From Dictyostelium discoideum (Eukaryota), in contig CM000154.2 of NCBI GenBank assembly GCA_000004695.1, positions 4,928,001-4,992,000 of the forward strand: a stretch of 64,000 bases of DNA, written 5' to 3'. How positions within the stretch are numbered: the stretch's first letter is position 1; each line of letters opens with the position of its first letter. Positions 461 through 52,576 of this stretch are shown one piece after another. Below the pieces are notes generated by a model. It worked only from the letters and a program-made list of their open reading frames with translations, ran no database searches and was not told the DNA's origin. The translations under genes were made by a program, and so were the position numbers.

Positions 461-497
<37 letters not shown>

Positions 498-743
498 AAA
501 ACACTGATTCAAATAAATGGAAGATATTCGAAATAATATTTTTTTTTTTTTTTTTTTTTTTTTTTGATTGGCAAGTTAATCATTAAAAATTAAAATTATT
601 TAAACTTAAATTAAGCTTAATAAAAAAAAAGAAATAAAAAAAATTTTTTTTTTTTTTTTTTTTTTTTTTCCTAAGAAAAAAAAAAAAAAAAGAAATTACA
701 AATATTTAATTTATTATATATTATTTTTGATTTTTTAATTTTT

Positions 744-2510
744 TTAATTTATATAACCTTCAGTTCTTAAATGATTTAAAATTAAAAGGATTGCATCTTT
801 TACTGAGGTATGAGTTGTATCAATTCTTAATTCTGGATTTTCTGGAGTTTCATATGGATCATCGATACCAGTGAAACCTTTGAGTTGACCACTTCTAACT
901 TTAGCGTATAAACCTTTACGATCTCTTTTTTCACAAGTTTCAATTGGAGTTGAGATATGAATTTCAATGAAACCACCATTTGGAGTGATTAAATCACGAG
1001 CAAATTTACGAGCACCAGCATAAGGTGCGATTGGGGCACAAATTGCAATACCACCAGCTTTTGAAATTTCAGAGGCAACGAAACCAATACGTTTGATATT
1101 GAGATCACGATGTTCTTTACTGAAACCCAATTCACTTGAGAGGAATGTACGAACGACATCACCATCTAAAAGAGTTATTGAACGACTACCATCTTCAAGG
1201 AGTGCTTCATTTAATGCATTTGCGATTGTACTTTTACCACTACCACTGAAACCTGTAAAGAAAACTGTAAAACCTTGTTTTGAACGTGGTGGACATGAAT
1301 CCCTTAAAATTTTAACCACCTTTTCATAGGTGAACCAATTTGGAATTTCACCACCAGTACGAAGGAGATGACGTAATTTTGTGCCAGAGATATTTGCAGT
1401 TTCTAAACCCTCTGGAACTTCATCGACTGGATAATATTTATCGTGTGCTGGTACGTAAACCATCATTTGGAATGGAAGGATTTTAATTGATAAACGATTG
1501 GCTAATTTAAGTGCCAATTCTTGAGCTTCGTATGGTTGATAAAATAGGTTGCCTTGTTTGTCCTCACCTGGACCTGCATGATCTCTACCAACGATGAAAT
1601 GATTACAACCGAAATTCTTTCTAATAATTGCGTGCCAAACTGCCTCTCTTGGTCCACCCATTCTCATGGCCAATGGCAAGAGTGAGAGTGTTGCCAATCC
1701 CTCTGGATAGGAGTCCATGATCTCTTTATAACATTTAACACGTGTGTGGTAATCGATATCGCCTGGTTTGGTCATGCCAACTACTGGTTGAATTAAAAGG
1801 TGACAATTTGCATTCAACTCGGCTGCTCTAACTGTAAGTTCTCTGTGTGCTCTATGCATTGGATTACGAGTTTGGAAGGCGATAACGTTCTCCCAACCTT
1901 TGGTTTTAAATAATTCTCTCACTTGAATTGGTGTACGACGGAGACCGTTGTAATCGTAGTGTACTGGTAATTGGGCACCCTCAAGCTTGCCGCTTACATA
2001 GTACTCTTTGGTATTGAAAATTGTGGAAACACCTGGATGGTATGGGTCAATGGATCCCATTGTCTTTTTGGCTTCGTTCTCTTTATTTGGTGTATAATAA
2101 TTTGAAACGGTTAAAACTGCTATTAAATTTCCCTCTTCATCACGTAATGCCATTTGTTTACTATCGGTTGCTAAAACTGTATCCAAGCATTCCTTGCTTA
2201 TATCCAATACTATTGGCATTGGGAATAATAATCCCTCATCTTTATCACCATCGATTGTCATGGTTTCAACAACATTATTATAGATGGTTTCGTCCATAAA
2301 TGTACTCAATGGTGAGAAACCACCATTCATCAATAATTCTATATCACATAATTGCTTCTTTGTTAATAATAAACTTGGTAATGAAATTGATCTTTGTTTT
2401 AATTCTACTAATTCTTCTCCTTCTAAAATTAAATTTATTAATTCTCCGCCATGTGGGATTGAACCATAAAGTTTGGAATTATTTGTTGTTAAAATATCTG
2501 GTGATACCAT
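744..2510 (-). CDS. Bifunctional PAPS synthase. The N-terminal ATP sulfurylase domain (QTRN and GRDHAG motifs) is fused to a C-terminal APS kinase domain (P-loop GFSGSGKST, LDGD and KGFTGIDDPYE motifs). Single exon, 588 aa.
   Basis: One continuous ORF on the minus strand. The motifs were recognised by eye in the translated ORF. Typical AT-rich flanks. Confidence 0.88.
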   Translation of the reverse strand: MVSPDILTTNNSKLYGSIPHGGELINLILEGEELVELKQRSISLPSLLLTKKQLCDIELLMNGGFSPLSTFMDETIYNNVVETMTIDGDKDEGLLFPMPIVLDISKECLDTVLATDSKQMALRDEEGNLIAVLTVSNYYTPNKENEAKKTMGSIDPYHPGVSTIFNTKEYYVSGKLEGAQLPVHYDYNGLRRTPIQVRELFKTKGWENVIAFQTRNPMHRAHRELTVRAAELNANCHLLIQPVVGMTKPGDIDYHTRVKCYKEIMDSYPEGLATLSLLPLAMRMGGPREAVWHAIIRKNFGCNHFIVGRDHAGPGEDKQGNLFYQPYEAQELALKLANRLSIKILPFQMMVYVPAHDKYYPVDEVPEGLETANISGTKLRHLLRTGGEIPNWFTYEKVVKILRDSCPPRSKQGFTVFFTGFSGSGKSTIANALNEALLEDGSRSITLLDGDVVRTFLSSELGFSKEHRDLNIKRIGFVASEISKAGGIAICAPIAPYAGARKFARDLITPNGGFIEIHISTPIETCEKRDRKGLYAKVRSGQLKGFTGIDDPYETPENPELRIDTTHTSVKDAILLILNHLRTEGYIN

Positions 2511-2749
2511 TTTTTAAATTTCTATTTATATATAATTTTACAAAAAAAAAAAAAAAAAAAAAATATATTTAATTTTACAAAAACAAAATAAAATGTTTAA
2601 ATAATTTAATTTAAAAATTAAGAGAAAGGAAATAAAGAATTTGCTTAAAAAAAAAAAAAAAAGGAATCGTTTTGGGAGAAAAAAAAAATAAAAAAAAAAA
2701 AAATATAAAAAAAATTTAAAAAAAATAAAAAAAATTAGTTTTGAAAATA

Positions 2750-2784
<35 letters not shown>

Positions 2785-3619
2785 CAACGTTGTCAGTTTT
2801 ATAAAAGTTGAAGAAAAAATTTAATTGTGACATAATTACTTTTTGAAAATTAAAATGATTTTTCGTTTTTTGAAAACTGCAAATTTTTAAGATTCTTTTT
2901 TAGAATTGTGTGTTAACCCGACCTGGGTTTTTTTTTTGATGTGAAAAAAAAAAAAAATAAAAAAAAATAAAAAAATAAAAATAAATAAAATAAAAATAAA
3001 AAAAATTTAATAAATAAAAATAAAATTAAAAGTTGATATAATACAATAAAATGTTGACTATGTGGAAATAAAAAAAAAAAAAAAAAAAAGTTTAAATATA
3101 AAAAATAATGTTAAAAAAAAAAAAAAAAGTGTAAAAAAAATCAAAAAGAAATTAATAAAAACAGATAATTATTATTATTTTATTTTTTTTTTTTTTATTT
3201 TATTTTATTTTATTTTATTTTATTTTTTTTTGTTCAATGGTGTGTCGAGATAACATCTTAGTCTTTGTGATATGTATGAAAGTGTAAATATATGATTGAT
3301 TAACACACCTATGTCTTATTTTTATTTAAATTTTTTATTTTTTTATTTTTTTTTTAATTTTATTGGTTGGGTGGTATTTTTTTTTTTTTTTTTTTTTATT
3401 TTTTTTTAGCTTTTGTTTGACATTTAATCTTGATCAAGATAACATTATTAGAAAAAATAAAAAAAAATCTAATTTTAGTGATAATAAAAAAATAAAAATA
3501 AAAATAAAATGAATGAATGAATAATTTGCCATTTACTTTTAAAATTAAAAATAAAATAATAAAGTTATTTTAAAATTAATTATTTATTAATTAATTTTTA
3601 TTTATATGTATATATGTAT

Positions 3620-3941: not shown

Positions 3942-4027
<86 letters not shown>

Positions 4028-4570
4028 TTCAACATTTGATATAAATGGTTCACCAAGATCATCGCAACCATTCATTAAATTACCAAATTCGTGAACTACT
4101 AAAGAATGTTTACCAGGTTTCAAACCTGTTATTCTACCTTCAAATAAAGTTTTTGTTGTACTTGCTCTGAGTAATCTAATGACACCATAAACACCTTTAC
4201 TACCAACACCACCACTTCCTCCACAACCTTTTTGCCAATTTTCTATTAATCCTAATGAACATACAGCACTTCCTGATACTGTTTCTTGTTTTTTGTGGCA
4301 TGTTGATGATGATGGTGATGTTGATGTTGTTGTAGTTGTACTACTTAATCCACAAATTGTTGCATTTCTACCTGTATTTTTTATAGTTTCTAATATGTCT
4401 TGTGTTAAATCTGTGCCTTGAAGTACAATTCTTTGTTCTGGAATATCATGTTCTACGAGTTTAGTATTTTCAAGCTTTTCTCTTAATTCTTTACTAATTG
4501 AATCAACACAAGATTGACAACTTATATCAACATTTAATTCTACTTTTATCTCTAAATTCTTATCATCCAT
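3620..4570 (-). CDS. Copper chaperone for superoxide dismutase (CCS). An N-terminal HMA copper-binding motif (SCQSC) is followed by a SOD1-like domain ([17 protein letters not shown]) and a C-terminal CPC motif. A run of 34 Asn is inserted in the SOD-like domain.
   Basis: 316-aa single-exon ORF. The MxCxxC-type motif, SOD1-like core and C-terminal CxC are the CCS architecture. The poly-N is encoded by the (AAT)n run at about 3951-4025. Confidence 0.82.
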
Positions 4571-4901
4571 TTTGTTGGTTTTATATTTGTATGTATATGT
4601 ATATTTATTTTATGGGGGTTTTTTTTTTTATTTTTTTTATATTTTATCTCTTTTGGAAGGGAAAAATTAAAAAAATAAAAAATTAAAAAAAAAATAAAAA
4701 ATAAAAAATAAAAAAAAAAAAAAAAAAAAAAAAAAAATAAAAAAAAAAAAATAAAAAAACTTTTTCTTCTAATGGAAATAGAATAAGTCGACGTAATTAG
4801 TGATTATTATGAAATTTAATAAATTAATTTTTTTTTATAATTTTTTTTTTTTTTTTTTTGTAATTGACCTTTTTTTTTTTTAATATCTTTGTTTTTTGTT
4901 G

Positions 4902-4934
<33 letters not shown>

Positions 4935-5145
4935 ACCTATTTTGGTAATTAAAAAAAAAAAAAAAAAAAAAACAAAAGATATTAAAAAAAAAAAAAGTAT
5001 GGATAAATTAGTATATAATATAATCTATTTTGTTGTTTTTTTTTTTTATTTTCTTTTCTTTTTTTTTTTTTTTAAAGCAATGTTTGATGAAGCTTGTGTT
5101 GATCAACTTATATTTTTTAAAATCATTTTTTTTTAAGCAATGTTT

Positions 5146-6191
5146 CTAAACTTTATCATCATCTGCCTGAGATTCCATCACTTCATCAATTTTATCGCCA
5201 GTGATTGAACCAGGTGGAGGTAGTGGCTTTACACACCTACCAATATCTCCATTCTCAATGTTTGGAAAGAATACTTTCTATTTTTAATAATGGTATTAGA
5301 ATTTAATGAATAAAAAGTAGTGTACAGTTTATATTTTTTAATTATTCTTATAAAACTTACGATAATTTCGGTAACATCATTATAAAATGAAGCTTGGTCA
5401 ATGTTATTAAACACTTGTATATTATTGATTGAATTCATTTTGTAATGACTAAATAGGCAAAATATAAGTTGATCAACACAAGCTTCATCAAACATCACTG
5501 AAATAGAATTACTGGTACCAATTGGAGTGATAGTACAAGGGGTATTGGTACTTGATGGTGAAAATTCAAATTTAAAATTATTTGGAGTTTGAGTCTGCTC
5601 TAAATAAACTCTATTTATATTACCACTAAGTTGGACTATTTTTTCAGTAGCTAAAGAAGAGAAATAATTATTCTTCAATACTTGTGAAACAGTGATAACA
5701 AGATTTGGATTGGAGGAAATTATCATAACAGGTTCTGAGTGTATGTCTTTTTGACTAGGAGTAACAATAAGATTTATATTTGAAATGATATTAAATTTAG
5801 CCGATGATTCATATGGACATTCGGGTGACTGTAGACATATGTGTACTTTATCTTTTACACTTGGGAAAACATCAATTGAAATGTCCTCAGTTTTATAGCC
5901 TACTGTATCAGGTTGGACAAGGAGTGGAGCATTCGTGGTTTTATAGTTTGATTGTTTTGGTTCAATAACTCTTTTTGGAAGTGGGTTTAGTGTTTGTGGT
6001 ATTAAAATTTCAAATCCCATTGGATTATCTAGATTTTGAGCGGCAAATTGATTCATTATCCAAGAAAAGTCTATTTCAGTTCCTATCGTTGATTGTGGGA
6101 CACCAAGTTTTGCAATATTATAGGTTATATCTTTTCTTATCCATGTTACATGTCTTTCCATATAATCAACTAAATATCCAATACCATCCAT
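5146..6191 (-). CDS. Hypothetical protein of about 347 aa in two exons: complement(join(5361..6191,5146..5277)). The 83-nt intron spans 5278-5360 (GTAAGT...AATAG). Function not recognised.
   Basis: The ORF-track ORF 5229..6191 reads through a canonical GTAAGT donor at 5360. Splicing to the AG at 5278 shifts the frame, which then runs cleanly to a TAG at 5146-5148. A possible AATAAA lies at 5045-5050 on the minus strand. Confidence 0.5.
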
Positions 6192-6347
6192 GCAATAAGC
6201 TCCTCCTCCTCTTGATTCTAATTATGAAGTATATCGTATCAAATGGTATATAATAATTAATTAGTTTTAATTATAGTAAAAATAATAATAAAAATAAAAT
6301 ATAATTAAAATAAAAATAAAAATAAAAATAAAAATAATTAATTATGA

Positions 6348-7712
6348 TTAAAATAATATTATTTTTATCTTACCTTGACCTCTTTGCCAATTTAGATCAC
6401 CTAAACAAAAGGTTTTTTGTTGACCATCATCACTGGTACCATACATTAACTTTGAATGATCTTTTGAGGAACTTCTTTGTGGATTTACATCTATGAATGG
6501 ATAATTGAGTCTTAATGCTATTGAGAAACTTGTACCAGAAACTACATTATTAGCAAATCCCTTTATTGTATTTGATGTCATTGTTTGAGACATCCATTTC
6601 GAAATATTTTTGTAATATTTACCAATATATTGCCATAATAATTCAATGTTATTCATTTGAGCAAAGTTTTTTGAAGATGGTTCGGCAATAATTCCTTTCT
6701 TTTGTGGGAGTGAAGTTTGAACAAAATATTCACCAAAGGAATATTTATTTACATGATAATAATGAGAAGATTTGAAGTTTGCATCTGATGAGAATTCAAA
6801 ATTTTCAGAAATATGACCAGCCTGGAAAATAAATAAAAAAAAAGTTGTAAAATTTGAGTGAGTATTTATTATCACAATAAAATAAACAATAATAAAAATA
6901 ATTATACATACCAATTTAGCCCATTGTAAAATTTTAATTTTTCTAGAGAGAGTTGAACCTACAAAAAAATTTTTCTTAATAATTTCATCGATTTCTGAAA
7001 AATATTTCTTTTTCTTTAAATCATCATCTGTTACTGTATCTAATTTTGTTTCGTCTACATCATTGATACCTGTTAGACTTGTTGCGAGTAATTTGCTTAA
7101 CATTTTACCTTTGTCGAATTTATGGTTATTTATTGCTTTAATTGCAGGGTTAGTATATATCAAATATTTTGGAATAATATCTAATTCATTTGGTTTCAAT
7201 GTAATACAAATTGAATGTTGTAAATAACTATCTTCAGAACTATGTAAAAAGAAATCATCAATTTCTTGAGGTGTGTAGGGGATACTATGAATTACGTGAA
7301 TACCACCATGTTCATTCCAAATAAAAAACCCTTTTGCATGTGCACTCCCTTTACCGTCATCAAAAGCATTATTGTAAGAAATACTTGAAAATATATTACC
7401 GTTGGCTTGACCGAATGTTTGAGTAATTGGAGATACCTGGTCTTTAACTCTCATATTATATTTACTTAATTCAAGTATTTTTTCATTTTTGTTCTTTAAA
7501 TTGCTATCTGTATAAAAAGATGAACCACTACCTTTATCTCCAGGTTTATTAAAATGTTCATAAATCCACCAATCAACATAATTTTCAGCGGGTTTTAAGC
7601 TTGGATTTGATGATTTTGCATAAATATCATTGTATAAACATCTCGGAACTTGTTGACATTTAATTATTGAAAATAAAATAAATAATAAAAATATTTTAAT
7701 CAAATTTTTCAT
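6348..7712 (-). CDS. Deoxyribonuclease II (acid DNase) homologue with an N-terminal signal peptide. Two exons: complement(join(6912..7712,6348..6821)). The 90-nt in-frame intron spans 6822-6911.
   Basis: Signal peptide MKNLIKIFLLFILFSIIKC. The first HxK motif GSAHAKGFFIWNEHGGIHVIHSIPYTP resembles human [25 protein letters not shown]. The second catalytic motif DHSKLMYG...CLGDLNWQ lies near the C-terminus. The intron is GTATGT...TTTCCAG and its translation is implausibly hydrophobic (VCIIIFIIVYF...). Confidence 0.83.
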   Translation of the reverse strand: MKNLIKIFLLFILFSIIKCQQVPRCLYNDIYAKSSNPSLKPAENYVDWWIYEHFNKPGDKGSGSSFYTDSNLKNKNEKILELSKYNMRVKDQVSPITQTFGQANGNIFSSISYNNAFDDGKGSAHAKGFFIWNEHGGIHVIHSIPYTPQEIDDFFLHSSEDSYLQHSICITLKPNELDIIPKYLIYTNPAIKAINNHKFDKGKMLSKLLATSLTGINDVDETKLDTVTDDDLKKKKYFSEIDEIIKKNFFVGSTLSRKIKILQWAKLVCIIIFIIVYFIVIINTHSNFTTFFLFIFQAGHISENFEFSSDANFKSSHYYHVNKYSFGEYFVQTSLPQKKGIIAEPSSKNFAQMNNIELLWQYIGKYYKNISKWMSQTMTSNTIKGFANNVVSGTSFSIALRLNYPFIDVNPQRSSSKDHSKLMYGTSDDGQQKTFCLGDLNWQRGQGKIKIILF

Positions 7713-16678: not shown

Positions 16679-18929
16679 TTGATTAACGAGTGTTTATCCA
16701 TTTAAAGAAATAAGCAATAATTAAAAGTTTATTTATAAAAAGGATTTTACCTAAATGTTTTTTCCCTCTTTTTTTTGAAAATTTTTTTAGTTCGAGAAAT
16801 GTTATTTTGTTTTTTTAGATTTTCAAAATTTATGGGATTAAAAATTTTAATGTCTCAATAATAAAATAGTATGTTAGAATTATTATAGCTTAAATAAATT
16901 GATCAACAATTACTCTATTTAGTAAGGTTGTACTTGGTATACAGTAGTCATTGATAATTTATTTTTTAAAAATTTTAATTAGTTTGTTGTATTCCCTTTT
17001 GTTGCAAATTGAAAGTGTGTCCTCTAGTAAAAAAACTTTATTTATGTAATCCAAAGGTGTCCAGAAAATAGTTTCAACGAGGGTGGTTCAAAGACATCTG
17101 CTCATGGTTATGGAGTAGGTCAATGGAACTTTATTTATTCAGAATTAATTCAATTATTCACTGATAGGTCCATTGCGACCAAATTGTTAAAAAAAAAAAA
17201 AAAAAAAAGGAAAATCAGTTTTATAATTTTCATAACAATAATAAATTCTTTATTTGTTTAAAATTATCTCTTTATTTCTTAACATATATTTATATATATT
17301 TATAACTAATAAATTGTAATGAATTACATTGTTTAATAATCATAATATTAATAATAGTAATAATAATAAGAATAATAATGATTAACAATTAAACAATAAT
17401 AATTAAAATAATAATTAATTTATTTAGTTTTTATATATTTTAGAGTTTTCGTTCGAAACTCCTCGGCCGAAAATAACGAAAACTCGAAAATTATAAAAAC
17501 TGAAAAAAATGAAAAAAATAAAGTTAGTTTTGATTCACGCTTTACAGCATTCATATAATATTAATTGTGTGTTCCTTTATTTATTATGATCAATATTTTT
17601 TTTTTTTTTGATATAAATAAACTATTGTAGTATACAATTAGTATGTTATTTTTATTTGTTTAATTTAGGTTTTTTAGTTTTTGTGAATTTAAAATGGTAT
17701 GTTATTTTAGATTAGGTAATTAATAATTAATTGGTGGTAATTGTTGGAATTGATTCATTTGTGTTTATGCTCCATTCTTTTTTAAATTTTTTGATGGTTT
17801 CGGACCATTGGGTTTCTTTTTGAGTTTTTGTGAGGTTGTTTTTAATTGAGTATTGGTTAAAGTTTGATAAAGTTCTTGAATATTCCAATCTTATTAGCTT
17901 GTGCCATTTTGATTTTAATATATCATAATCTAGTGTTGTGTTGTTTATTTGGTTGTTCCAATTATCAATTGATTGAGTTATATTGATGTCAAATAATGAT
18001 TTGCATAACCATATCCATATTTGGTGAATAACTAATGAGATTATGTTCCAATATGCATGTGTTCTGACTAGATCAAGATTTGTGTTTATATAATTCCAGT
18101 TGAACCTGTATTTTTTATATTGTGCGTTTTCTGCAAAATGAAAATTAATATTGATAGTTGGATCTGGTTTAAATGCTTTGTTGTTTGTTTGTGGTTTATA
18201 GATGAGTGTGTATAATTTTGTTGTATGGTTTTTTGTTAGTGACCAGTTTTTGTTTCCATTGCAATTTTTATATATAAAATATTTTAATTTGTCGTGGTTA
18301 ATGAAGTTGATTGTGTGCTGACAATTGAAAAACAAATGACCATAGGGATCATTATTCATTTCATTGTTGCAAATGGGGCAAACTTTGTTGTGTAGATGAT
18401 TAATCGGAAGACATCTAGCATGGAATCTTTGCATTGTATCTCGGCCTTTTGGATCTTTTAATTTTTGAATTTTGACAAAAAGTTGGTCGTATGTGTATTT
18501 CCATAATAGTTGTATTGATTGTTGGTGCGAAGTAAGAAGTAGATCTGAATATTTCTTGCCAATATAGTCTTTTGATTTGCATTGGTGATTGTTTAGTATT
18601 GTCGAGTAGATTTCTTTGAGTGTTGGTGGTAGTGAAATATTATTTGTGTTTAATGTTTGAGAGGGTTGGTTTTTTGTTAATATTGGTTGTAGGATTTGAA
18701 CTTTATCTTTTAGATGTCCAATTTGAGTTGCATAGTTTTCCCATTCTTTTTTTATTTTTATAAGGTATGGAGAAGAGATTGATTTGTTGNNNNNNNNNNN
18801 NNNNNNNNNNNNNNNNNNNNNNNNNNNNNNNNNNNNNNNNNNNNNNNNNNNNNNNNNNNNNNNNNNNNNNNNNNNNNNNNNNNNNNNNNTATGTTGATAT
18901 TTTTGGTTATATTATGATTACTACTACTT

Positions 18930-19829: not shown

Positions 19830-20101
19830 GACCCTGTAAAAAAAACTAAAAATAAAATGAGATCTAACATCTCAAGGAGAAGCAACTAATAATTGCGTTA
19901 TCCAATTCAAAAAAAAAAAAAACATTTTAAAAGACAAAAAAAAACAAACAACAACAACAATCTCTTTTTTTGATTATTTCATTTTTCATATAAAAAAGAC
20001 TTAAAAAACAAATAAATAAATAAATAAACTATTTTAAAAAGCCATCTTTTTACTTTATTGTAATTTATTATTTGATTATTTCATTTTTCATATAAAAAAG
20101 A

Positions 20102-20144
<43 letters not shown>

Positions 20145-20427
20145 GGAAATCAGAAAATTTCCAGATTTTTAACTTTTTAAAGAAAAATAAAAAAAATAGA
20201 AAGAAAATAAGATGAAAATCACAAACAACACCACAAATATTAAGCAACACAAATGCCTACAAAAAATAAGCGAAATTGTGGATAAAACTCAATTAAAAAA
20301 AAAACAATTCAAATACGTCATAAACATCAATCACGAACCAGACGATAAAATAAAAAAAGATTTAGAAAAAAGTTTGGACAAAAAAGATGTTTTAATCAAA
20401 AGTAATAATACAATTCAAAATTCGAAA

Positions 20428-20466
<39 letters not shown>

Positions 20467-20596
20467 TAAACCAACCCCTCTTTTAGAGACCCTGTAAAAA
20501 AAAAAAAATAAAATAAAATGAGATCTAGCATCTCAAGGAGAAGCAAATAATAATTGCGTTATCCAATTCAAAAAAAAAAAAAAACATTTTAAAAGA
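19830..20596 (+). repeat. Repeat cluster upstream of the tRNA. It contains a ~106-bp direct repeat (19830-19935 and 20488-20596, over 90% identical, each ending in an A-run) and an internal ~36-bp direct repeat (19971-20008 and 20073-20108). The cluster begins exactly 48 bp upstream of the tRNA 5' end.
   Basis: The copies were aligned by eye: gaccctgtaaaaaaa...aaaatgagatctaRcatctcaaggagaagcaaMtaataattgcgttatccaattcaaaaaaaaaaaaacattttaaaaga. It is consistent with remnants of a TRE5-type insertion, since TRE5 elements target about 48 bp upstream of tRNA genes, but the family is unverified. Confidence 0.5.
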
Positions 20597-50123: not shown

Positions 50124-52576
50124 ATTATTTTCTTCTTCACTACTTGATTCACATAAATCAGAAGCATCACTATTTACAACGAAATCATTATATTCATATT
50201 CTTCTTGTTTGAAATCATCTTGATCACTTTCTTCATCATCAATGAAATAATTTGATTGATTACTAAATTGGTACAATCTTCTTGCTCTTTCTTTTCTTTC
50301 AAAATCGTTTCTAAATTTTTTACTTTCTTTTTCTTTATCTTTTATTTTTTCCATTCTTTTTTTTAGTTGATCTCTCCATCTTTTTTCCTGTTTTCTAATA
50401 TTTTTCATTGTTTCAGAAAAATCTTCATTTATTTCTTTCATCTCTTTTGGTTTGTTAGGAGTGGTTGAAGTGGTATTGGTATTAGTATTGGCATTGGTAT
50501 TGGAAGTAGTGGTGGTGGTAGTAGTTTCTCTAGGACGTGAATTGTAATCTATTCTAATCTTTTCTGATTTTTTCAATGCTTCATATAGATCATCACAATC
50601 TTTTTCTGTTATATTAATTGGTGTTGTGGGGGTGGAGGTAGTGGTTGAATATTTAGGAAGTGGGTTATAATCTATTCTAATCTTTTCATCTTTTTTCTTT
50701 ACTTCAAATAGATCAGTATCACCAATATTACTTTTTTTAAGTTTCTCAAGTAAATTATTGTCTTTATCTTTTTGAGGTTTAATTTCCTCGAAATTAAAAT
50801 CTAGTTGATCATCATCAATAATACCATAAAAATTATTATCTTTAGTATGATTATTGTTGTTTTCTGTAATAATACTTTTTGTAATAATATTATCATCATC
50901 GTCAATAATACCATAAAAACTATTATCTTGTGTATCTTTTTTGTTGCTCTCTTTAATTCCTGTAATATTACTTTTTGTAATATTATCATCACCAATAATA
51001 CCATAAAAACTATTATCTTGAGTATCATTATCGTCACCACCTATATTTTCAAATCCACTACCATCATCTTCAGGAATTGATGAACTTGGAATTGGTTCTT
51101 TCCAACCCAATACAATAATATTATTGTTATTATCATCATTATCGATATCATCATCATCATTATCATTATCATTATCATTATCATCATCACTATTTTCAAT
51201 ATCTTTTAATTTTTTTAATCTTGATTTAGTTGGTAATTTTTCTTGTTTACTTTGTTTTTCTTTTAATAGTTTTTGTATTGCTTTATTTGTAACGATTTGA
51301 GGATTATGGGTACTTATTAAATCATTTTCAATTGCTTGAGTACTGCTTTCACTTAACATTTTTAATCTTTTTAAAATTTTAAGTTTCTCTTCTTGAGTTT
51401 CTGTATCAACTTGATCATTATCATCTTTTTTATCATATTTATCATGAGGATGATGATGGTGATGCTCATTATCATCATCATCGTCATCAAAGGCATTATT
51501 GGTGTTTTTTCTTTTCTTTATTACTCTACAAGGTGAAATGAGGTCATTTATTTCTTGATATCTTTCATTATCTTTATCTTTATCTTTATCTTTATCTTTA
51601 TCAATATCTTTATCAATATCTTTATCTTTATCAATATCTTTATCAATATCTTTATCTTTATCAATATCAATATCACTATCAATACCATCATCTCTATCAT
51701 CATCTTCATCACCATACTTATTATATTTTGTTGTTGTTACTATTAATTTATTTGTTTTTGGTGATTCTTTAATTTTTACTTTATTTTTTTTATTATTATT
51801 ATTAAAATCACTATCATCATTGCTAATACTATAACCACCACTATCATCACTATCATTAACATTACCATTATCATTATCAATTTCATCTTTAATTTCATAT
51901 AATAATCTATTTTTTGCTTTAAAATTTAATAATAAATCTGAATAAGAATCTAAACAATAAAATAAATTACCATGATATATTGGTCTATCTAAATAACTTG
52001 AAAATGGTAAAACTGTACAATAAACCATTTTTTTAATTTCATTTAAATTCATTATCACTGAATCTACACTTGGAATTAACTCTTTTGAACCATGAATTTC
52101 TAATCTACCACCATCAACCTCTTCTGGTCTATAAATTTTAATTAATTCAATAAATAATCCACCATTAAATTTATCTTTAAAAAATGATGATATTTTATAA
52201 ATTGATGGTATTTTTATTCTTTTTTTTTTTTTTTTTTAAAATAAATAAATAAATAAATAATGAATTTTTTTTTAAAAAAAAAAAAGATTTAATAATTTGG
52301 TTATTTTATTTTATTTTATTTTATTTTATTTTATTTTATTTTATTTTATTTTATTTTATTTTATTTTATTTTATTTTAAAATTACTTTTTATTTTGACTT
52401 TTAAAATCAAATAATTTTATTGTTAAATCTAAAAATAAATCTATACCTTCAAATAATAAACCACCATAAAATTCATAATCTCCAACTACTTTAATAGGTT
52501 TTCCTAACCATTGAGTTTCATTTTTATAAGAATTTATTGGTTCACCATCAAAATCATACTCTATTTTACTACCCAT
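49011..52576 (-). CDS. Large low-complexity protein of about 1132 aa. It has conserved-looking N-terminal (~170 aa) and C-terminal (~230 aa, with a CESC motif) domains, a poly-Asn tract and internal tandem peptide repeats. Model: complement(join(52386..52576,49011..52218)). Function not recognised.
   Basis: Exon 1 (MGSKIEYDFDGEPINSYKNETQWLGKPIKVVGDYEFYGG...) ends at a GTAATT donor. The intron of about 167 nt is dominated by (ATTTT)n. An AG acceptor at 52219-52220 restores the frame of the 1015-aa ORF. Repeats: (KDKDIDKDID)n at about 51555-51700, three FYGIIDDD units, and two EKIRIDYN units. Confidence 0.55.

Follow-up and report, generated by a model that had tools for sequence, protein, structure and literature searches.

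The inverted repeat and its gene

A 37-bp segment of a Dictyostelium discoideum coding sequence recurs in perfect inverted form just past the stop codon of the same gene. The locus raises the question of how the second copy came about and whether it acts on the gene that carries it. As argued below, the copy in the 3′ flank is probably the scar of one lineage-specific, microhomology-mediated templated insertion of the template-switch or fold-back class, and a probably neutral one. The analysis covers one stretch of 64,000 nucleotides, referred to as the window, together with homologous loci from other assemblies.

The two arms of the repeat are located at 5080–5116 and 5459–5495 of the window. 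The plus-strand sequence of the first arm, ATGTTTGATGAAGCTTGTGTTGATCAACTTATATTTT, is the reverse complement of the second at 37 of 37 positions, as a preliminary description of this DNA had reported. The boundaries are sharp, with two bases past either end being unpaired. When up to three mismatches are allowed, the 37-mer matches only two sites in the window, which are the arms themselves. Under the same threshold it was recovered in none of 100 dinucleotide-preserving shuffles. An exhaustive scan for exact inverted repeats outside low-complexity sequence identified the 37-nt repeat as the longest in the window, and the runner-up measures 17 nt. Other "inverted repeats" called by a repeat finder around 4600–5000 are poly(A)/poly(T) runs.

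The assembly GCA_054883475.1 carries an identical repeat, with the arms at 6218 and 6597. Its sequence differs from the window by one mismatch and 65 gap positions over 10.6 kb, indicating that it was sequenced independently. An assembly artefact is excluded by the presence of the repeat in this assembly. The preliminary description had judged a chance origin very unlikely and had named absence from independent assemblies as the sign of an artefact. The shuffles and the 17-nt runner-up bear out the former, and the latter does not apply. A chance match or an assembly artefact, which has nothing in its favour except the AT-rich context, is therefore already refuted as an explanation of the inverted copy.

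Each arm contains a 10-bp perfect palindrome, GTTGATCAAC (5468–5477 and 5098–5107), and the HindIII palindrome AAGCTT. This local self-complementarity might have aided stalling or strand switching.

The gene, DDB_G0291033, runs from 7712 to 5146 on the minus strand. It is composed of four exons (7712–6912, 6821–6374, 6217–5361, and 5277–5146) in the spliced model, which encodes a DNase II-like protein of 745 residues that is 100% identical from end to end to AX4 DDB_G0291033. The gene had at first been delimited as 5146–6191, with the coding arm in exon 1. That interval is a partial open reading frame starting at an internal methionine, and the arm belongs to the third of the four exons. The arm covers codons M658–F669 and the first base of C670 on the minus strand, so that the earlier assignment of this copy as coding, with the translation VMFDEACVDQLIF, is upheld by the spliced model. 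Intron 3 (5278–5360, minus strand) is 83 nt in length, has GT..AG boundaries, restores the reading frame, and lies within the loop that separates the arms.

The stop codon TAG is at 5146–5148 on the minus strand. This places the inverted copy at +30 to +66 past the stop, in agreement with the 30–66 nt given previously; its mRNA strand reads AAAATATAAG...CATCAAACAT. The first canonical AATAAA past the stop is a putative poly(A) signal at 5045–5050 on the minus strand (+96 to +101), seen as TTTATT on the plus strand. The 3′ arm is located upstream of this hexamer, also as described before. The next gene on the same strand encodes a CCS-like copper chaperone (4570–3620) and starts 575 nt past the stop of DDB_G0291033. 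A plus-strand open reading frame at 4864–5136 (90 residues), considered as context, is a low-complexity artefact. A literature search on Dictyostelium poly(A) signals yielded nothing usable.

The N-terminal half of the protein is a DNase_II domain (PF03265, Pfam E = 8e-31), and the Pfam search returned no match in the C-terminal half. The C-terminal ~330 residues (residues ~417–745, exons 3–4, 5146–6217) are nevertheless conserved across the Dictyostelium family. They constitute an uncharacterised domain fused to DNase II. DDB_G0290837 and DDB_G0267616 are paralogues of DDB_G0291033.

Anatomy of the 60-bp insertion

The inverted copy is contained in a lineage-specific insertion of 60 bp that is framed by two copies of an 11-mer, AAGCAATGTTT on the plus strand and AAACATTGCTT on the mRNA strand. 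The distal copy is at 5075–5085 and the proximal copy, which adjoins the stop codon, at 5135–5145. The insertion extends over 5086–5145 or, equally, over 5075–5134, depending on which repeat copy is taken as the original. The 11-mer has just these two occurrences in the 64 kb, separated by 60 nt, where 0.07 would be expected. Together with the adjoining T run, it forms a 20-nt repeat with one mismatch.

The insertion is sequentially composed of 31 nt of inverted copy, the filler TTAAAATCA, a run of nine T residues, and the duplicated 11-mer. On the mRNA strand, the sequence after the coding region reads TAG AAACATTGCTT A9 TGATTTTAA AAAATATAAGTTGATCAACACAAGCTTCATCAAACAT TGCTTT A15 GAAAAG.... 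The last six nucleotides of the distal 11-mer, ATGTTT, are also the first six of the inverted arm. This 6-nt ATGTTT/AAACAT, common to both elements, constitutes the junction microhomology. The second junction of the insert falls within A/T runs and is hence ambiguous.

The filler at 5117–5125 consists of nine orphan bases without a convincing template, and a k-mer search for one returned nothing beyond AT-rich matches of the kind expected by chance. A direct match of 13 nt within intron 3, TTATATTTTTTAA (5329–5341), was considered as the template and rejected, as it would explain only four new bases and is chance-like in AT-rich DNA.

Distribution of the inverted copy

The comparison set comprises nine family genes at eight loci, fetched as the loci encoding the closest homologues. 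Two extracts, L001 and L007, cover the same region of GCA_054883475.1, the near-identical strain in which the inverted copy is present. Four loci are syntenic with the window, sharing with it the TIG gene on the upstream side and, downstream, the genes for CCS and ATP-sulfurylase. L002 and L003 come from D. discoideum isolates and encode orthologues with 80% and 77% protein identity, respectively; L005, from a D. cf. discoideum isolate, contains two tandem family genes at the syntenic site; and L008 is the orthologue in D. citrinum. The remaining loci are L004, the locus of GCA_054883475.1 encoding the AX4 paralogue DDB_G0267616, and L006, another family locus of D. cf. discoideum.

The inverted copy is absent from L002, L003, both L005 genes, L008, L004, and L006. 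The preliminary description had proposed asking whether orthologous genes keep it, and the syntenic ones do not. In L002 and L003, the coding arm is kept with one substitution, the inverted copy is missing, and the 3′ UTR is colinear with that of AX4 minus 60 nt (GTTTCGAACATTTTTTA(n) versus GTTTAGAAACATTGCTTTA(n)). The longest inverted match between coding sequence and 3′ flank in any locus not of the AX4 type is at most 13 nt and AT-rich.

The coding arm is conserved in all family members examined, with 1–10 substitutions, which identifies it as the ancestral source copy. All 37 positions of the 3′ copy agree with the coding allele of AX4 itself, and every other allele or paralogue differs from the copy at 1–10 positions. 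Thus, the template was the adjacent gene itself. On this alignment evidence, the 3′ arm is the derived one, an insertion for which the adjacent gene served as template and which is confined to one haplotype, the AX4 type.

A search for more strains by the exact neighbouring CCS protein found none beyond the two AX4-type assemblies, and metagenome contigs scanned for a 25-mer of the arm gave 0 matches. Between L002 and AX4, mismatches amount to about 2.8% in one flanking block and to 7.5% across the gene-containing block. Because the comparator isolates are fairly diverged from AX4, the event is dated only as later than that split. The complete identity over 37 nt is a weak sign of youth.

A model for the origin of the insertion

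The junctions can be accommodated by a single mutational event in the ancestry of the laboratory strain. A 3′ DNA end in the A/T-rich 3′ UTR, which could belong to a nascent strand at a stalled replication fork or to a resected break, would leave its template. The loose 3′ end would then prime on the gene's own coding sequence, about 350–400 nt away and in the opposite orientation, and 31–37 nt of coding sequence would be copied. The strand would rejoin the original template through the 6-nt ATGTTT/AAACAT, about 11–20 nt behind the point of departure. The expected outcome is an inverted copy accompanied by a short flanking direct duplication and nine orphan bases. A return upstream of the departure point would produce the flanking duplication at 5075–5085 and 5135–5145. 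Since the orphan bases have no convincing template, the model requires additional switches beyond two or some synthesis without a template.

The distance between template and insertion is 343–400 nt. If a long 3′ tail, unwound or resected, folded back within its own strand, both the distance and the order of return would be explained. Several rounds of abortive synthesis at a break would be an alternative account of the same two features. The enzymes involved may have been those of template switching, MMBIR or FoSTeS, or those of fold-back or polymerase-theta-type break repair; the replication-based and break-repair versions are handled here as one class. The insertion is probably selectively neutral, judging from its lack of conservation.

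Two further origins have to be weighed against a templated insertion. The 3′ arm could be what is left of a partial duplication, in inverted orientation, of the gene or of a paralogue (a pseudogene fragment), or else a gene-conversion patch. The family is multi-copy and rapidly diverging, and tandem copies exist at the L005 syntenic site. However, the homology ends abruptly on both sides, with no decayed similarity past the 37 nt, and the copy represents the adjacent gene's own allele, unlike all paralogues. The 11-nt flanking duplication and the 6-nt microhomology are not expected for a decayed duplicate either, and L002, L003, L005, and L008 display only the pre-insertion state and no longer inverted fragment. 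Such a remnant is very unlikely.

Insertion of a small mobile element, or capture of a piece of DNA, with duplication of an 11-bp target site is likewise very unlikely. The AAGCAATGTTT direct repeat does flank the insert in the manner of a target-site duplication, but this 11-mer is the only feature of a transposable element found. The insert measures 49–60 nt, lacks terminal inverted repeats and an open reading frame, and is found nowhere else in the window. What is informative in its sequence derives from the gene 343 nt away, and one repeat copy overlaps the copied segment, which points to microhomology priming rather than a staggered cut.

Comparison with known mutational systems

One-step inverted copies made by template switching or fold-back synthesis with junction microhomology have been documented (PMC5453318, PMC8794818, PMC10710096, PMC11724301, PMC2943611). 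The event class is already known, and the DDB_G0291033 insertion would be a further instance.

In the template-switch model of Ripley and its four-point version by Loytynoja and Goldman (PMC5453318), a perfect inverted repeat arises in a transcribed region, as observed here. The new segment reproduces, exactly and in reverse-complement form, sequence from its own locus, although the template is 343 nt away and typical templates are tens of nucleotides off. The insert is absent from L002, L003, L005, and L008, but a single switch and return would leave over the nine orphan bases at 5117–5125. The order of the points also departs from the four-point scheme, as point 4, the return, is upstream of point 1, the departure. 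This order was not observed in human data and has been tied to reopening of the newly made duplex (PMC5453318). Template switching also gives rise, in a single step, to perfect RNA hairpins and to new miRNAs (PMC8794818, PMC10710096). The 37-bp stem is close to the ~35-bp stems discussed for pri-miRNAs, whereas the loop of 259–342 nt spans part of the coding region together with an intron and the stop codon.

Fold-back or snap-back insertions (SD-MMEJ, PMC2943611; yeast, PMC11724301; PMC7165422) resemble the present one in being short inverted templated inserts. They are typically 5–34 bp and reach up to ~150 bp. They also display junction microhomology, represented here by the 6-nt ATGTTT at the arm end and in the flank repeat, and may mix direct and inverted templated pieces in one insertion, as is the case here. 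Pol-delta together with NHEJ or alt-EJ has been assigned to yeast fold-back inversions (PMC11724301), and polymerase-theta end joining to inserts of this kind (PMC7165422). In fold-back, SD-MMEJ, and TMEJ events, templates are usually found no more than tens of bp from the break, whereas the distance here is 343–400 nt and the break itself is putative.

The locus is a clean, fully resolved natural case in which one templated insertion would have given rise to a perfect 37-bp inverted repeat between the coding sequence and the 3′ UTR of a transcribed gene. The pre-insertion state survives in sister haplotypes. For mutagenesis by template switching or fold-back in a genome of extreme AT richness, the locus may be a useful case to study.

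Predicted RNA structure and regulatory potential

RNAfold was applied to the last 488 nt of the spliced mRNA, extending to about 15 nt past the AATAAA, and to the 571-nt unspliced form. In both cases, all 37 positions are paired in the minimum-free-energy structure with a mean pair probability of 0.98, on the assumption that the 3′ UTR extends to at least +66. The isolated duplex has a free energy of −54.8 kcal/mol and a G+C content of 27%. The loop between the arms is 259 nt in the spliced form and 342 nt with intron 3, and contains the last 76 codons and the stop codon. The suggestion that the mRNA could fold a 37-bp duplex between coding sequence and 3′ UTR is thus matched in silico. Both arms are predicted to reside in the mRNA if the AATAAA at 5045–5050 is used, in which case an A/U-rich 37-bp helix would close the 259-nt loop. 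Formation of the duplex in vivo would depend on the choice of poly(A) site and on ribosome traffic through the coding arm.

A working cis-regulatory element is a further reading of the repeat. The duplex would be diced by DrnA or DrnB to siRNAs, or would hinder translation, and would thereby lower expression of the gene and possibly of its paralogues. The idea is mechanistically possible, since hairpin RNAs give rise to siRNAs in D. discoideum, with spreading that depends on RrpC and DrnB (PMC3661229). The predicted duplex is perfect, the 3′ arm precedes the first AATAAA, and arm bases 14–37 match the paralogue DDB_G0267616 perfectly. Several observations argue the other way, and we regard a working element as unlikely. 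The hairpin has the stable stem, in silico, of a miRNA or hairpin-RNA locus, but it is missing in the related lineages compared. Its absence from the other family genes examined, including the four syntenic orthologues, means that there is no sign of selection. The junctions of a mutational scar explain the existence of the repeat without a function, and ribosomes would be expected to keep the coding arm unwound on a translated mRNA. Neither the table of DrnB-dependent miRNAs (PMC6161686) nor the supplements on Amoebozoa miRNAs (PMC11014262) list the arm core GTTGATCAAC, though a hairpin whose loop spans 259 nt would probably escape their pipelines. An Rfam 15 scan of 4500–5700 on both strands gave no match at E ≤ 1, and none of the papers in the library searched names DDB_G0291033.

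Young plant MIRNA and hpRNA loci are born by inverted duplication of a target gene, and small RNAs from their stems target the founder gene and its close paralogues. The present repeat is similar in that an inverted copy of a coding segment creates a perfectly complementary stem. It differs in that both arms are predicted to lie in the founder's own transcript and the stem is only 37 bp. The repeat might be a newborn, strain-specific, self-targeting hairpin with co-transcribed arms, whose stem is diced to 21-nt siRNAs, with RrpC-dependent spreading dampening DDB_G0291033 and, in trans, DDB_G0267616. The effect in trans is suggested by the perfect match of arm bases 14–37. We consider this version unlikely as well. 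Were it true, the emergence of a small-RNA regulator through template switching could be observed directly at its first stage, here in an amoebozoan and within a nuclease family that diverges fast. The locus also offers a natural test of whether the Dictyostelium RNAi machinery responds to a short dsRNA formed within one mRNA molecule. The inverted repeat by itself does not reveal a new regulatory system, and a probably neutral templated insertion is the preferred reading.

Other features of the family and the window

DDB_G0291033 is strikingly diverged among isolates labelled D. discoideum, with syntenic proteins being only 77–80% identical. The family contains many paralogues, and DDB_G0291033 adjoins a large TIG-domain gene. 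The DNase II-like family may be fast-evolving or diversifying. The two tandem DNase II-like genes at L005 occupy 468–3099 and 4001–6515, against one gene in AX4, and constitute a copy-number variation.

The 3′ UTRs display additional differences. A segment TCACCCGATATATAATCTATATCCAAAT is located between two A runs in L002 (about 6620–6700), L003, and L005, and is absent from AX4. In L002, ATATAATCTAT is complementary to ATAGATTATAT about 50 nt downstream, forming an 11-nt inverted repeat near the poly(A)-signal region. AX4 possesses only the downstream half of this repeat (window about 5020–5030).

Elsewhere in the window, an assembly gap of 100 N is present at 18790–18889. Exact direct repeats of 36–40 nt (19887/20548 and 19969/20071) lie within 19868–20583, about 1 kb downstream of the gap, which suggests that this segment is duplicated or poorly resolved. 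A tandem array at 51587–51668 is built from the units TATCTTTATC and AATATCTTTATC and contains exact direct repeats of up to 52 nt.
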